The notes under the pieces were generated by a model. The model made no database searches and had not been told where the DNA came from. It saw only the letters and a list, made by a program, of their open reading frames with translations. Position numbers and translations under genes: made by a program. A stretch of 64,000 nucleotides of DNA from an uncultured bacterium. Its GTDB lineage: Bacteria; Babelota; Babeliae; Babelales; Vermiphilaceae. Location: contig OY969561.1 in the NCBI GenBank assembly GCA_963701085.1, positions 800,001 to 864,000 on the forward strand. The letters are read 5' to 3'. Within the stretch, counting starts at the first letter, position 1. Each line of letters starts with the position of its first letter. This document shows, one piece after another, positions 466 to 52,340 of the stretch.

Positions 466-1554
466 ATGAACAATCGCCTTACTCTTATTTTTACTGCTTA
501 TCTTTTGATTGGTATAAGTTCATGTAACGCAATAATTCATTGGCCACCGCAAAAACAAATTCAACCACTCGTTATCAACACTATCTATACAAATTTTACC
601 GTAACAGAACCAGTGCTTATTGATCTTTTTAATAGTCCCGTTATGGAACGCATTAAGCATGTCCGACAACAGGGAACTTTGGATTATGTTATTAAACAAA
701 AAAAAGAATACACCCGCTACGAACATTGTGTTGGTGTATGGGGACTCCTGAGAATGTACGGAGCAACACTCGAAGAACAGATAGCAGGGTTACTGCACGA
801 TGCTTCTCATACAGTATTTTCTCACGTAGGAGATATACTCTTTAATCATAATTCAGCAGATAGTTCATACCAAGATGATATTCACGAATGGTATCTTACA
901 CAATGGGGCGTTGATAAACTGCTTGAACAACACCATATATCTCTTGGTAGCATATTGCATAAAAGTGGCACGCACACCATGCTGGAACAAGATTTACCAA
1001 ATATATGTGCCGACCGCTTAGAATATAATCTCCAAGCGGGAATATTGACCGATATGCTCACTACTGATGATATTGCAACCATTCTTAAAGATCTGCAGTA
1101 TGATAACGGCCAATGGTTTTTTGTTAAACAAGAAAGCGCAATAAAATTGGCGTTAGTTTCTTTATTCAACACAGAACATGTTTGGAGTAGCCCCGTAAAT
1201 CAATTGATTTATCAGTGGACAGCACACGCCTTAAAAAGAGCCTTGGATATTGGATTACTCACCACTGATGATATCCACTTTTCGACCGACCCAATTGTAT
1301 GGGACAAACTGTGGATAAGTAATGACGATGTTATTGCCAACTACTTGAACAAAATAATTCATTATAAACAACTGATTACCCCTCAATCAGAAAATAACAA
1401 AGTACTACGCACAGGAAAATTCAGAGGACTCGATCCATTCGTGCAAACAGATAATACATTACAAAGATTAACGAGCATTAACAGCACCTATTGCAATGAA
1501 TACAATCGCGTTAAAGCACTATTTGACGATACTACCAAAAAAGAAACACTATGA
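466..1554 (+). CDS. HD-domain phosphohydrolase (dNTPase/SAMHD1-like HD subfamily) with N-terminal signal peptide
   Basis: RIKHVRQQG, RYEHCVG, LLHDASHTVFSH, ADRLEY motifs; hydrophobic N-terminus. Confidence 0.8.
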   Translation: MNNRLTLIFTAYLLIGISSCNAIIHWPPQKQIQPLVINTIYTNFTVTEPVLIDLFNSPVMERIKHVRQQGTLDYVIKQKKEYTRYEHCVGVWGLLRMYGATLEEQIAGLLHDASHTVFSHVGDILFNHNSADSSYQDDIHEWYLTQWGVDKLLEQHHISLGSILHKSGTHTMLEQDLPNICADRLEYNLQAGILTDMLTTDDIATILKDLQYDNGQWFFVKQESAIKLALVSLFNTEHVWSSPVNQLIYQWTAHALKRALDIGLLTTDDIHFSTDPIVWDKLWISNDDVIANYLNKIIHYKQLITPQSENNKVLRTGKFRGLDPFVQTDNTLQRLTSINSTYCNEYNRVKALFDDTTKKETL

Positions 1555-2912
1555 AACAATACATTTATTTAAAACCTATCTCTAAACTAATTTTTTCTTG
1601 CGCTCGCCCTGAACTTGTTGAAGGGTTTTCTTCGAGCGCTCAAGGATATCCTTTATTCCCCAATTTCCACTTCGTTCCAATCGGGGTCCCCATCGAAAGG
1701 AACAGAAGATGGGGTCAAACAAGCTCAGGACGAGCGCGGGGAGGAAACTTAATATTTTTCAACTTTAGGGATAACCTCAAATTACTCATCACCGCCCATT
1801 TTTTGATTACTGCATCATGCACTGCAATGGAAAATACAGCACAGATCACCAAGCCAAACATTCTTGCGGAACTAACCTGCATAAAAGAACCTTTTAACGC
1901 TCTTTATCTTGCAGAAAACCGCATTCTGATAAATGGTAGAGACCACTGCAGTGTTGTTGACCCCACTACCAATAAAGAAATTAAAAGAATATTTGATCAT
2001 AACGGATGGTCATCAAAGATATCAGTACATCCAAACAGAACAAAATTCGCTTTCTCTGGTTATTATGGTGCACGAGATAATGAACAACAAAAAATAACAA
2101 TCTATAACACTAAAACGTATGAGATAGAACATACTATAAACTGTGATGGTGCTACGATTAACTCATTACTCTTTAGCCCATCAGACGATACCATTGCAGC
2201 AAATGAGTATGGTGTTGTTGTAACACTCTATAATTACAAAACAAATAAGACTACTATCATTGATATTAAAGAGGCGGCAAGAGAACGAGGCGACTACGAA
2301 CCAATCTTCTCATTTCATCCAACTCAACCACTCATCTGCCTTGCATGGAAGAATATATATATTCACAACCTAAAAACATCTGAGACAACAGCAAAGTACG
2401 GCGGATCAGCCTATCATTCATTTTGCGAACATAGTCCTGACGGATCTTTCATCGCAGAAGGCACGAACTCTAAAATTATTATCATGAAGCACAACCAAGA
2501 CACAGGCATAATAGATGTTATTAAACAAGACTTTGTTAGCTATTTTGACAAAATCGCATTTCATCCCAACAATAAAATTCTTATAACATTATCAAACCCA
2601 GGAGGGTTTTTAAATTATTGGGATGTGAGCACGTTTCAACACATTACTACAATGATTCCAATCTGTAGCATAAATAGTTGGGCACCATCCCTTTCTTTTT
2701 CTCCCAATGGTACAAAATTATTATTGGTGCTGGATGGCAAATGCATGGTACTCGAAGTTCCATTCGATGTACTGTACCGACCTAGCGCAAAACAGAAGGC
2801 TCTATTTGCCTATTGGTTACTCAAAAATTATCGAATCGATCAACACAATATTCTACTAGATGAAATTGCACAGTTGATCATGTATACTTTACTTGAAACG
2901 TATAAACGCTAA
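1551..2912 (+). CDS. Exported WD40-like protein with an in-frame palindromic-element insertion at its N-terminus
   Basis: Paralog of 4122 and 5301; repeated FSP/FHP and YWDV motifs; 71 extra residues before NLKLLITAHFLITASCTAME. Confidence 0.8.
   Translation: MKQYIYLKPISKLIFSCARPELVEGFSSSAQGYPLFPNFHFVPIGVPIERNRRWGQTSSGRARGGNLIFFNFRDNLKLLITAHFLITASCTAMENTAQITKPNILAELTCIKEPFNALYLAENRILINGRDHCSVVDPTTNKEIKRIFDHNGWSSKISVHPNRTKFAFSGYYGARDNEQQKITIYNTKTYEIEHTINCDGATINSLLFSPSDDTIAANEYGVVVTLYNYKTNKTTIIDIKEAARERGDYEPIFSFHPTQPLICLAWKNIYIHNLKTSETTAKYGGSAYHSFCEHSPDGSFIAEGTNSKIIIMKHNQDTGIIDVIKQDFVSYFDKIAFHPNNKILITLSNPGGFLNYWDVSTFQHITTMIPICSINSWAPSLSFSPNGTKLLLVLDGKCMVLEVPFDVLYRPSAKQKALFAYWLLKNYRIDQHNILLDEIAQLIMYTLLETYKR
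1575..1773. mobile_element. MITE/REP-like palindromic element (family A) with nested family B unit
   Basis: Arms TATCTCTAAA..GCGCTCGCCCTGAACTTGT and ACAAGCTCAGGACGAGCGC..TTTAGGGATA; matches the intergenic copy at 41313-41401. Confidence 0.8.
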
Positions 2913-2937
2913 AAACTCATAACAAACAACACAAACT

Positions 2938-4125
2938 ATGAAACATAACCTCACATTACTCATCACCGCCCATTTTTTGACTACTGCATCATGCACTGCA
3001 ATGGAAAGCGTACTCACCAAACCAAAATTTTGTCTTTTTTACTCTGATACTATTGTCATAGTTGCGGGAGACAATGGGTGGACTTTTTTTGATACTACAC
3101 AAAAAGCACATACAAAAATTAATGAACAAAAAATCCAAGCCCTTGGTATAAATGAAAACATAGCAGCGTTGGTCACCGGAAAAAATAAAGATACATTAGA
3201 CATTTACACTATAACAGAAGAAGGCGCACTCAGAGCCGCATGGAAATTTGAGTCTCACTCTAAAATATGCCCCATTACTGTCAGCAACCATACAGTCTTT
3301 GCTTATCACAAAGATGAAATCAAAGCTTATGATTATAGAGATAAAACAAGACATAATATTAAAGTTCCCTATCATAAATCAGCTACCATTTTTCCCCGTA
3401 TTTCATGTCATCCAACAAAAACAGAAATTATATACCCAAGCTCTCAACAAACATTATCAATTGTACAACCTTATAGCGAACCTCTTATTAAGGCCCATCT
3501 TACAATAGATTTATGCATTTGCACTGGAGGTGAATATAATCCCAATGGTACCATGCTCGCGCTTAATAATCATCATTGCCGATACTTTATATACAATGAA
3601 GAAATGCGTGATTCATTCGCTTATGAACTTGGTACAGATAACAAAAAATATATCTCTCTCGCATTCCATCCACACTATTACACGTTACTGCTTTTATCCG
3701 AAGATAACAGTCTGGAATGTTGGGATTACCTACGACGCACATTACTCTTTACCACACACCCATTAGCAAAAACTAATTATGCCATAACGGAACATTGTGC
3801 ACTCAGCAAACGCCTTGCTTTTTCTCATGATGGAACACAGTTGCTTGTTGCCTTAGAAGATGAATGGAAAATTATAACCATTCCACAGAATAATCTTTTA
3901 GTTATCTGCTGGTTACTTTATAAAAACAATCTACCAAATAATCTTAAAAACATCATTGTACGCACTATCATTGGTAACACTCCATTTTCGCAATTAAATC
4001 TTGCGGAACTCTCCACAATTGCAACACTCCCTCCAATACGCGGAGGAGTAGATTTATCCACGCAAGCAGAAAAACCAACAGAAAATATAAAAATAACCGC
4101 CGTTTACCAAAACAAACAATCATGA
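2938..4125 (+). CDS. Exported divergent WD40-like protein
   Basis: Near-identical signal peptide MKHNLTLLITAHFLTTASCTAME; YNPNG, AFHPH, ECWDY, LAFSHDG motifs. Confidence 0.75.
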   Translation: MKHNLTLLITAHFLTTASCTAMESVLTKPKFCLFYSDTIVIVAGDNGWTFFDTTQKAHTKINEQKIQALGINENIAALVTGKNKDTLDIYTITEEGALRAAWKFESHSKICPITVSNHTVFAYHKDEIKAYDYRDKTRHNIKVPYHKSATIFPRISCHPTKTEIIYPSSQQTLSIVQPYSEPLIKAHLTIDLCICTGGEYNPNGTMLALNNHHCRYFIYNEEMRDSFAYELGTDNKKYISLAFHPHYYTLLLLSEDNSLECWDYLRRTLLFTTHPLAKTNYAITEHCALSKRLAFSHDGTQLLVALEDEWKIITIPQNNLLVICWLLYKNNLPNNLKNIIVRTIIGNTPFSQLNLAELSTIATLPPIRGGVDLSTQAEKPTENIKITAVYQNKQS

Positions 4126-51604: not shown

Positions 51605-51615
51605 TTAAGCGCACA

Positions 51616-52116
51616 TTATTCTAACAACTTCCATCTACCATCATACCGGTAGAGACGCAAATAGGAAACCTGAGAAACGGCATTACTTAATGCGTACATA
51701 ATTTTCTTATTTTTATCAGTTAAATAAACCGTACCAGAAGAAATGATACCGGTCGGATAAAAATGAATTGATGAATCAGGAAATGTTATCGCTTTTTTAA
51801 TGCTGCGCGATGGCGACCCCGGGGAACCAAGAACATTCGGCAAAAAACCAAAAGAAATACGCGATGACAATGTTTCACAAACATTATCACCACGATATTC
51901 ATTTTTTTGCGTATTACACACAAGTGACTGATCACTATTTGTAGCAATAGCTTTTTGCTGTAAATATGTACACGCACCTGCAAGTTTATCAATTTCCGCA
52001 TGTGCAATGGTATCATCTAAGAATGAAAGCTGCATCATGCCGAGCGTTGCAACTAAAACAAACAAACAGACAACTATCATTACTTCTATCAAAAAAAAAC
52101 CATGTTTATTCTTCAT
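51616..52116 (-). CDS. Type II secretion pseudopilin/minor pilin (GspH/FimT-like)
   Basis: Prepilin site KHG|FFLIEVMIVV; FYPTG. Confidence 0.85.
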   Translation of the reverse strand: MKNKHGFFLIEVMIVVCLFVLVATLGMMQLSFLDDTIAHAEIDKLAGACTYLQQKAIATNSDQSLVCNTQKNEYRGDNVCETLSSRISFGFLPNVLGSPGSPSRSIKKAITFPDSSIHFYPTGIISSGTVYLTDKNKKIMYALSNAVSQVSYLRLYRYDGRWKLLE

Positions 52117-52340
52117 TACAATTTAGCAAGACTAGCTCTTTCTCGTTCTTTTTCTTTTTTTTCTTCCAACAAAAGCTTATGTAACTTCCATGCTGCTTGG
52201 TCAAGCTCCTTCAGTGATTCCGTAGCTCTTTTAAGAGAATATTGTAGTCGAACTTCACGCTCATCTTCTGTATTCATCGTGTATGAAAAAGCAGTTGCAC
52301 TTAACGCACACATCATCATTATTTTTTTACAAACAATCAT
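52116..52340 (-). CDS. Small exported coiled-coil protein
   Basis: Signal SYT|MNT; helical charged body. Confidence 0.5.
   Translation of the reverse strand: MIVCKKIMMMCALSATAFSYTMNTEDEREVRLQYSLKRATESLKELDQAAWKLHKLLLEEKKEKERERASLAKL

Follow-up and report, generated by a model that had tools for sequence, protein, structure and literature searches.

In Plasmodium, processing of the PEXEL motif (RxLxE/Q/D) exposes x-Glu/Gln/Asp, and in Bacteroidota the export signal of lipoproteins consists of acidic residues just after the Cys at position +1. In general sets of signal peptides, Ala, Gln, Asp, Glu and Ser make up most of the +1 residues, and Met is seldom found. The phylum Dependentiae comprises protist parasites that are widespread and almost uncultured, and in the openly available text of their genome descriptions type II secretion is the only secretion system recognised (PMC4378268, PMC4776705), while signal peptides are reported for 79 of 126 ankyrin proteins (PMC4378268) or, in a further account, for 44% of the coding sequences and 78% of the ankyrin proteins (PMC6561590). 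As far as that text goes, the published secretomes, including those of Babela massiliensis and Chromulinavorax destructans, resemble the one considered here in the signal peptides of their ankyrin proteins and in type II secretion alone. The same body of text, on these two species and on other Dependentiae, makes no mention of any rule for the residues at the cut (a statement that does not extend to supplements or to subscription journals), and the rule reported here appears not to have been described before. In a 64,000-nucleotide window (positions 800001–864000 of the single-contig genome of an uncultured member of the phylum, contig OY969561.1), and throughout that genome, many exported proteins carry Met followed by Asp or Glu directly behind the predicted signal peptidase I site. 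Such a two-residue rule would bear on how Dependentiae tell host-directed cargo from resident envelope proteins.

The preliminary description of the window had noted Met, mostly followed by Glu, immediately after the signal peptide of 19 exported proteins. All 19 sites are present in the open reading frames (ORFs) starting where that description placed them, and its tally is exact: 12 M-E, one M-D, two M-N, one M-Q and three other, i.e. 16/19 M-[DENQ]. Every one of these frames has Lys or Arg near the N-terminus, then a hydrophobic stretch and then the Met, at residue 19–30 (93 in the frame beginning at 1551). The pattern is real and far larger than seen in the window. The genome is one contig of 1,198,634 bp (37% G+C), whose RpoD is 65–67% identical to three records, two of them labelled as Dependentiae and the one at 67% as an uncultured member of the Pseudomonadota, as against at most 47% over the full length for all other phyla. 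From this contig, a simple home-made codon-usage caller yielded 1,123 genes, many of the frames being fragmented, so that the counts given below can only be lowered. Signal-peptide-like N-termini were required to have a net-positive start and an uncharged stretch of 10–28 residues with an 8-residue window of mean hydropathy ≥2, a home-made heuristic rather than a trained predictor, which defines all signal-peptide counts in this genome and in its relatives. Met stands directly ahead of the first charged residue in 144 of 525 such proteins (144/551 with a slightly different filter), 129 of these sites being M-D/E (104 Glu, 25 Asp) and 15 M-K/R. At the same position of 5,089 internal uncharged stretches Met occurs in 2.26%, and it makes up 2.0% of protein bodies (binomial p ~1e-105). 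The excess is a single-position spike, with 26% Met there vs 2–7% at the adjoining positions, and the same heuristic applied to 77 loci from other phyla found Met at the junction once in 70 cases. A chance origin of the Met excess is excluded genome-wide, and the enrichment of Met at +1 and of acid at +2 that the preliminary description had proposed to look for throughout the genome is there under the heuristic filter, while being absent from envelope families.

A charge-agnostic scan, which asked for a hydrophobic core, a residue permitted at –3 and one of the small residues [AGSC] at –1, returned 188 sites with Met at +1. After normalisation for composition, Met is ~4–25 times more enriched at +1 than any other residue. 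At +2, these 188 sites have Glu in 91, Asp in 20, Asn in 11, Gln in five, Lys or Arg in nine, a hydrophobic residue in 26, His in four and a small residue in 22, so that Asp/Glu account for 111/188 vs a background of 11%. By sequence, 127/188 (D/E/N/Q at +2) belong to the substrate class of NatB. Asn and Gln are not enriched outright (16/188, or 8.5%, vs 9.7% background), and among the non-acidic +2 residues they are ~2-fold up (16/77, p=0.008), with small, aminopeptidase-permissive residues depleted (22/77 vs 42.5% expected, p=0.008). The rule would list candidate effectors cheaply from sequence, ~130–190 proteins in this genome, mostly without a known domain.

The Met sits just where signal peptidase I would be expected to cut. 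Relative to it, the hydrophobic core lies at about –15 to –8, with a mean hydropathy of 2.5–3.0 at –14 to –8 falling to ~0 at –6 to –4, and a polar c-region of 6–7 residues follows (median of seven residues from the end of the core to the Met); the positive n-region and the hydrophobic h-region are partly imposed by the construction of the filter. Signal peptidase I obeys the –3/–1 rule of von Heijne, and it is on this rule that the cleavage register rests. Among the 129 M-[DE] proteins, –1 is A/G/S/C/T in 122 and –3 is L/I/V/A/T/S/C/G in 124, both being satisfied in 118, and –2 is frequently His or Tyr. If the cut is placed after the Met instead, only 61/129 have an allowed –3. Cleavage is thus predicted to fall before the Met, as the preliminary description had assumed, and the genome holds one signal peptidase I gene, a 340-amino-acid (aa) open frame above the TIGR02227 cut-off. 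As judged from the predicted site, the element is a Sec signal of the classical three-part kind, in which the bond cut by signal peptidase I would come immediately ahead of the Met. The Met occupies a narrow range of positions in the reading frame (5th–95th percentile, 19–31), and the codons at both –1 and +2 are diverse, which places the constraint on the protein.

Several other identities for the motif were considered and rejected. An artefact of gene calling is ruled out because a Shine-Dalgarno signal precedes the upstream start, the Met positions are narrowly distributed and the –3/–1 pattern is present. Type IV prepilin leaders have Gly at –1, Phe or Met at +1, Glu at +5 and their hydrophobic segment after the cut; here the hydrophobic segment precedes the Met, hydropathy is negative after it, and Gly is at –1 in only 32/129. 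A lipobox does not apply, the +1 residue being Met and not Cys, which occurs only at –1 (15/129). The PEXEL pentamer shares the acid at position 2, but, given how the filter was built, no Arg precedes the Met, and a small residue takes the place of Leu at –1. A DNA-level motif is likewise discounted, with –1 codons as varied as GCA (21), GGC (15), GGA (12), GCT (12), TGC (10) and others. A cleavage-site weight matrix trained by expectation-maximisation and ignoring +1 drifted into the hydrophobic core, and its sites were meaningless.

The motif is confined to effector-like cargo. Pfam searches at E ≤1e-3 assigned 20 of the 129 M-[DE] proteins to ankyrin and nine to WD40/beta-propeller families, with single matches to C2H2 zinc finger, PLA2_B, PLDc_2, thymidylate kinase, methyltransferase, HIT/CwfJ, Pyr_redox_2 and PEP-utilizers, two weak hydrolase matches and one false positive (a DEAD helicase called from an internal start); 89 have no family, and none matches a resident periplasmic, outer-membrane or envelope housekeeping family. 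For comparison, the first 121 of the 243 signal-peptide-like proteins without Met were scanned at E ≤1e-6, the other 122, the 138 'other' N-termini and one protein of 4,385 aa being left out. This non-Met set includes eight clear envelope residents (M48, MreC, S49, PAP2, FKBP, SurA-like, ZnuA and TolB-type PD40), 11 collagen or Peptidase_S74 fibre proteins, ~9 cytoplasmic false positives and 71 proteins without a family. At equal threshold, ankyrin and WD40 proteins number 21/129 among M-[DE] vs 4/121 among non-Met proteins (p=6e-4), and envelope residents 0/129 vs 8/121 (p=0.003); the separation of effector-like from resident proteins, which had been proposed from three envelope genes of the window, thereby extends to the genome. 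Two large families illustrate it: all 20 members of a surface-fibre family are non-Met, with classic A↓D/E sites (the arrow marks the predicted cut), while essentially every member of a 20-member ankyrin family has a small residue and then Met, including seven that the filter scored as non-Met, in which Y, Q, L, N or H comes after the Met. Among the non-Met sites as a whole, 55/243 read [AGSC]↓[DE].

Counted over the genome, Ank_2 matches 41 gene calls: 16 M-[DE], two M-[KR], nine with another signal peptide, most of which have Met at the junction, and 14 without a signal peptide by the filter, ten of the latter being fragments of one cluster (513.5–520 kb) and two being M-E proteins that escaped the filter because their n-region has no Lys/Arg. 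The cluster itself (G000:C1:513500-520800) consists of ~10 adjacent same-strand ankyrin ORFs of 90–310 aa without signal peptides and looks like one very large broken ankyrin gene or an array of leaderless fragments. Elsewhere, at L098:16085-16804 (G000:C1:355745-356467), a 240-aa protein combines a signal peptide and a Met-Glu junction with five eukaryote-type C2H2 fingers (zf-C2H2, E=3e-32), a domain unusual in bacteria, which points to a host nuclear target.

A particularly direct comparison is offered by two tandem thymidylate kinase genes (G000:C1:723623-725773). One is leaderless, with the N-terminus MPQLTKG (start MPQLTKGILIAIEG...), and the other has a signal peptide and the junction HA↓MENHKQLNRG (HA↓MENHKQLNRGILIAIEG...), its M-E Met lying three residues upstream of the leaderless paralogue's start. 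Signal-peptide-bearing thymidylate kinases recur in metagenomic relatives, 16 being found among the 120 matches listed, and 10 of these 16 have M-D/E. The signal-peptide-bearing copies suggest that a kinase is exported to act on host nucleotides.

The junction is also conserved where its surroundings are not. Homologue families were drawn from a collection of 5.8 billion (metagenomic) proteins. Among the homologues of the 14616–15467 protein that have a signal peptide (36–62% identical), 26/34 have M-D/E, and the small-Met-Glu columns have the lowest entropy (1.7, 1.3 and 1.0 bits vs 2.6–3.5 in the flanks). For the 42514–43467 protein, 14/30 homologues with a signal peptide have M-E, followed by a linker of ~3 to 20 residues to the conserved domain. 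Over 36–65% identity, Met-Glu is the most conserved N-terminal feature while the flanks change; Met, where replaced, mostly gives way to Ala before Glu, and some homologues differ by just the extra Met (AIA↓MEQ vs AIA↓DEY). Grouped by mature sequence, the 551 N-termini make up 409 BLAST families; one or more M-[DE] members are present in 81 of them, and 11 are mixed. The motif thus occurs in at least 81 unrelated families, and its distribution and conservation show that it arose independently in many of them and is held there by selection.

Relatives were analysed with the same pipeline from partial genomes of 200–400 kb each, with families f2, f4, f5 and f7 left out. Met stands before the first charged residue in 27/187 cases in a genome of the same genus (G006), in 27/160 in one of the same family, f1 (G012), and in 24/186 in one of family f11 (G028), an excess with p <1e-11 in each. 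The excess is not significant, that is absent or weak, in the partial genomes of G030 (family f13, 0/97), G058 (f12, 1/83), G057 (f6, 6/123) and G064 (f3, 3/60), so that the motif occurs in two Dependentiae families (f1 and f11) and is absent or weak in the four others sampled. The M-[DE] proteins of the three positive relatives (60 scanned, one having been dropped at a locus boundary) comprise six ankyrin, three WD40, three AAA and one RING finger protein, the others being single families and 44/60 having none; no envelope resident was found among these 60 by Pfam. In G057 (L210-L219, G057:C1:1-200000), the commonest junction pair is Gln-Asp/Glu (18/123), carried by ankyrin proteins in 15 of the 18 cases. 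Many of these are tandem paralogues in tandem arrays, and the register is less clear, only 5/18 fitting the simple –1/–3 rule before the Gln. Even so, Gln-Asp/Glu may be this lineage's counterpart to the Met-acid junction, and the finding suggests that the residues used to label one kind of cargo at the junction vary from lineage to lineage.

The features of the window are collected in the table below, in which the junction proteins are located by their ORF starts as well as by their Met codons.

Features of the 64,000-nucleotide window discussed in the text (coordinates in the window; arrow, predicted cleavage)
Feature	Position	Strand	Junction	Met codon	Remarks
WD40-like paralogue with disrupted signal peptide	1551..2912	+	CTA↓MEN	1827-1829	Met is residue 93
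Secreted WD40/beta-propeller protein	2938..4125	+	CTA↓MES	3001-3003	Signal peptide; Pfam
Secreted WD40/beta-propeller paralogue	4122..5267	+	CTA↓MEN	4185-4187	Pfam
Secreted WD40/beta-propeller paralogue	5301..6350	+	CTA↓MEN	5364-5366	Pfam
Secreted orphan	11733..12734	+	VVA↓MEQ	11805-11807	
Truncated paralogue of the 11733..12734 gene	12751..12846	+	ITA↓MEE	12820-12822	Stop after 31 codons
Secreted orphan	13735..14199	+	IQA↓MKP	13822-13824	Met then base
Secreted orphan	14616..15467	+	AIA↓MEQ	14679-14681	Homologues keep M-D/E (see text)
Secreted orphan	19353..19811	+	IIT↓MEP	19410-19412	
Small orphan	26303..26620	-	LHS↓MNN	26564-26566	GTG start
Small orphan	27190..27678	-	AIG↓MEA	27610-27612	Paralogues elsewhere in genome
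DUF2807 (adhesin-head-like) protein	27807..28799	-	SKS↓MDV	28737-28739	
Orphan	30564..31421	+	ILP↓MMQ		GTG start; Pro at –1, doubtful cleavage site
Orphan	34875..35300	+	SFG↓MFF	34938-34940	
Orphan	35436..35936	+	CFS↓MQL	35505-35507	
Small orphan	41417..41776	-	LHS↓MEQ	41711-41713	
Frameshifted gene with signal peptide	42360..42473	-	GLA↓MEK		Stop after 37 codons; continued by ORF 42056-42379 in another frame
Orphan enzyme-like protein	42514..43467	-	LNA↓MEA	43402-43404	Conserved DINKT block
Small orphan	52116..52340	-	SYT↓MNT	52275-52277	
Contrast: ABC substrate-binding protein (ABC_sub_bind)	15488..16501	+			N-terminal hydrophobic segment, no Met-acid junction; Pfam
Contrast: TamB-family envelope protein	48822..51533	-			No Met-acid junction; Pfam
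Contrast: BamD/YfiO-family outer-membrane lipoprotein	54455..55354	+			No Met-acid junction; Pfam
Context: type II/IV secretion ATPase (T2SSE)	52647..54359	-			Pfam

Pfam confirms the identities that the preliminary description had given to the three contrast proteins, and all three lack the junction, as it had said. The WD40-like call for the frame at 1551 is supported by WD40-type Pfam matches among the M-[KR]/M-[DE] set. In this frame, a dispersed repeat is inserted in the 5′ coding part and displaces the Met to residue 93: the copy at 1590–1800 adds ~70 residues (...ARPELVEGF...) ahead of the signal peptide. The repeat is found again at 37101–37255 and 51500–51650, its 27-base core has 63 copies in the genome (with up to four mismatches), and a related inverted repeat with 20-nucleotide arms lies at the junction of two mutL-like ORFs (36000–37283 and 37290–37889). 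The protein ending at 28799 has an atypical c-region containing Glu and Lys, which makes for a poor signal-peptidase site. For the frames at 12751–12846 and 42360–42473, the remainder of each gene is in another frame, these being either pseudogenes or assembly indel errors. Over the whole window, GC skew is negative in 15 of 16 4-kb bins.

The outer-membrane export components detected in the genome are only secretins and a type II secretion system (T2SS)-type ATPase, and profile searches of the genome found neither VirB4 nor FHIPEP, in agreement with the available text of PMC4378268 and PMC4776705. Tandem secretin genes encode proteins of 800–950 aa in 70 relatives. Here (L130:1-8200, G000:C1:993226-1001425) they form a string of same-strand ORFs of 91–524 aa each, the two open frames with secretin-domain matches being just 242 and 443 aa long, which reflects either gene decay or frameshift errors in the assembly. 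In the window, an ORF adjoining the T2SS ATPase (51616–52116, minus strand) starts MKNKHGFFLIEVMIV..., which we take to resemble a prepilin or pseudopilin leader, and matches no Pfam family at E ≤1e-4.

Considering the position, the cargo and the conservation of the motif together, it is very probably a selected effector tag of some kind that acts after cleavage. In the reading we favour, although we would stop just short of calling it probable, an ordinary Sec signal peptide would be cut by the sole signal peptidase I right before the conserved Met, so that the mature protein would start with Met-Glu or Met-Asp, and this new N-terminus would be a tag, kept by selection, on cargo bound for the host (ankyrin, WD40, zinc-finger and phospholipase proteins, the duplicated thymidylate kinase and many orphans), distinguishing it from proteins resident in the envelope or at the surface. 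By a logic resembling that of PEXEL, the tag would, once exposed by cleavage, be read as the address for a following delivery step, which might be exit from the periplasm via the secretin (type II-like) pathway, the crossing of a host compartment membrane, or both. We infer cleavage at the predicted bond and reading of the new end alike from sequence, and that the tag is specifically a sorting or translocation address is a more tentative proposition than the existence of a tag. Several observations weigh against the proposed address tag. The tag is neither necessary nor sufficient: some effector-like proteins lack the Met or the acid behind it, PP2C, a PI3/4-kinase-like protein, three ankyrin proteins and one WD40 protein being found among the 121 non-Met proteins. 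The probable secreted hydrolases GH1, BNR, C11 and PLD lack it as well. The four families with no or a weak Met excess also encode secretins, and the tag therefore cannot be something that the secretin pathway generally requires. The M-[DE] state is, moreover, labile: only 6 of 22 best matches in the same-genus genome keep it, as compared with 3 of 98 non-Met queries that match an M-[DE] protein there (p=0.001), though best BLAST matches in partial relatives, mostly at 21–59% identity and often paralogues, are weak evidence on conservation either way.

The main rival supposes that the new end is fitted to the host rather than to an export step, in that Met-Asp/Glu would resemble a native eukaryotic N-terminus once the protein had been delivered to the host cytosol. 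By the specificities of NatB and of the N-degron pathways, such an end resists methionine aminopeptidase and is a NatB-type acetylation substrate, and the Met hides an Asp or Glu that cleavage of the A↓D/E type would expose to the Arg/N-degron pathway. This would make sense of the carriers, which are proteins expected in the host cytosol or nucleus, and of the motif's absence from surface fibres and envelope residents; it is also in line with the frequent exposure of D/E at non-Met sites and the AIA↓MEQ vs AIA↓DEY contrast among homologues, with the share of D/E/N/Q after Met, the relative rise of Asn/Gln and the depletion of small residues at +2, and with the replacement of Met by Ala before Glu, likewise a stabilising and acetylatable end. 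Yet NatB acts co-translationally and is not known to act on imported proteins; Ala, Ser and Gly at +1 are equally stabilising and usual, which leaves the choice of Met unexplained; and the Gln-Asp/Glu junction of the sister family, found mostly on ankyrin proteins, is no NatB substrate, Gln being destabilising unless cyclised. The lack of outright enrichment of Met-Asn/Gln speaks against a NatB-specific form in particular, and the arrival of these proteins in the host cytosol is itself presumed. We therefore regard such mimicry as unlikely, while acknowledging that a cargo split by site of action, with surface fibres and hydrolases untagged and proteins with cytosolic-type domains tagged, fits mimicry and an address alike. 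Should the host read the tag, this would add a new example of a pathogen adapting a protein end to eukaryotic N-terminal rules. The preliminary description, which had seen in the junction a eukaryote-like N-terminus acting as an effector sorting or stability signal, is thus borne out in the predicted cleavage before Met and in the split between cargo and envelope proteins, and finds no such support in the Met-Asn/Gln counts or in the non-NatB Gln-Asp/Glu variant.

It could also be that nothing is sorted at all, and that the signal peptidase I of this lineage simply prefers Met-acid at P1′–P2′, an optimum towards which fast-evolving secreted genes would drift. The single LepB gene, whose match to its family model is unusually split in f1 and f11, the families that bear the motif, would suit this idea, as would the restriction of the motif to certain lineages and the similar side-chain shapes of Met and Gln, which might fit one pocket. 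The same enzyme must, however, cut the envelope residents and an equally fast-evolving 20-member fibre family, none of which has Met, and family f12 has the split LepB (in G029) but not the motif (in G058), so that a mere processing optimum is improbable. The preliminary description had itself offered two alternatives, and neither is favoured by the data. One, that signal-peptide cassettes were fused to intact genes, belongs to a broader scenario in which leaderless genes, some of them eukaryote-derived, gained a signal peptide by 5′ extension or cassette fusion and the old initiator Met persisted; many carriers do have eukaryote-like domains, and some database homologues (P0059, P0060, P0078 and P0083) are annotated as starting at the Met-Glu. 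Between unrelated families, nevertheless, the tails of the signal peptides are no more alike than shuffled ones (over the last ten residues, identity is 6/10 or higher in 4 of 8,095 cross-family pairs, vs ~5.4 in a column-shuffled null), a relic would not be the most conserved feature amid changing flanks, the Met of the exported thymidylate kinase does not coincide with the start of its leaderless paralogue, and neither the excess of Asp/Glu at +2 nor the exact abutment to the –3/–1 site would be explained, which together render a relic start codon very improbable. Dual translation starts, the other alternative, would have the internal ATG also initiate a leaderless cytoplasmic isoform, and the strictness of the Met and the annotation of some homologues from it are what one would then expect. 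Shine-Dalgarno-like 4-mers (–18 to –5), however, precede 0/129 of these internal ATGs as compared with 55% of true starts and 6.7% of 5,543 random internal ATGs (p=1.3e-4 vs 0/129), and the A-rich pattern of real starts is missing upstream of them. Nor is it obvious what ankyrin and WD40 proteins would do within the bacterium, and a separate leaderless thymidylate kinase is already present. We consider dual starts the least probable of these accounts.

Returning to the proposed address tag, one of its closest described analogues is the PEXEL of Plasmodium. In both, a secretory signal is followed by processing that exposes (in our case, by prediction) an N-terminus whose second residue is acidic or an amide, and many unrelated host-directed proteins of an intracellular parasite are marked in this way, while resident secretory proteins are not. 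PEXEL differs in being a eukaryotic pentamer cut by plasmepsin V some 15–30 residues beyond the signal sequence, whereas the Met-acid tag lies at the signal peptidase I site itself, with a constant Met at +1 and neither Arg nor Leu. It is conceivable, if rather doubtful, that we are dealing with a bacterial counterpart of PEXEL, in which signal peptidase I would create the label, Met-Asp/Glu would route more than one tenth of the proteome from the periplasm to the host, and sister lineages would use Gln-Asp/Glu; such a counterpart, if true, would imply a co-evolving reader or translocon. The lipoprotein export signal of Bacteroidota is similar in that a short acidic motif right after the cleavage site decides between the periplasm and a destination further out, and different in that it acts on signal peptidase II lipoproteins with Cys at +1, as opposed to Met at +1 of soluble cargo. 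The likeness to NatB substrates and N-degron signals lies in the Met-Asp/Glu/Asn/Gln class, which most of the Met sites fit, although NatB works on nascent chains in the cytosol. With canonical Sec/signal peptidase I peptides, finally, the sequences described here share the n-, h- and c-regions, the small residues at –1 and –3 and the acidic early mature region, and they depart from them in the dominance of Met at +1 in one functional class of cargo.

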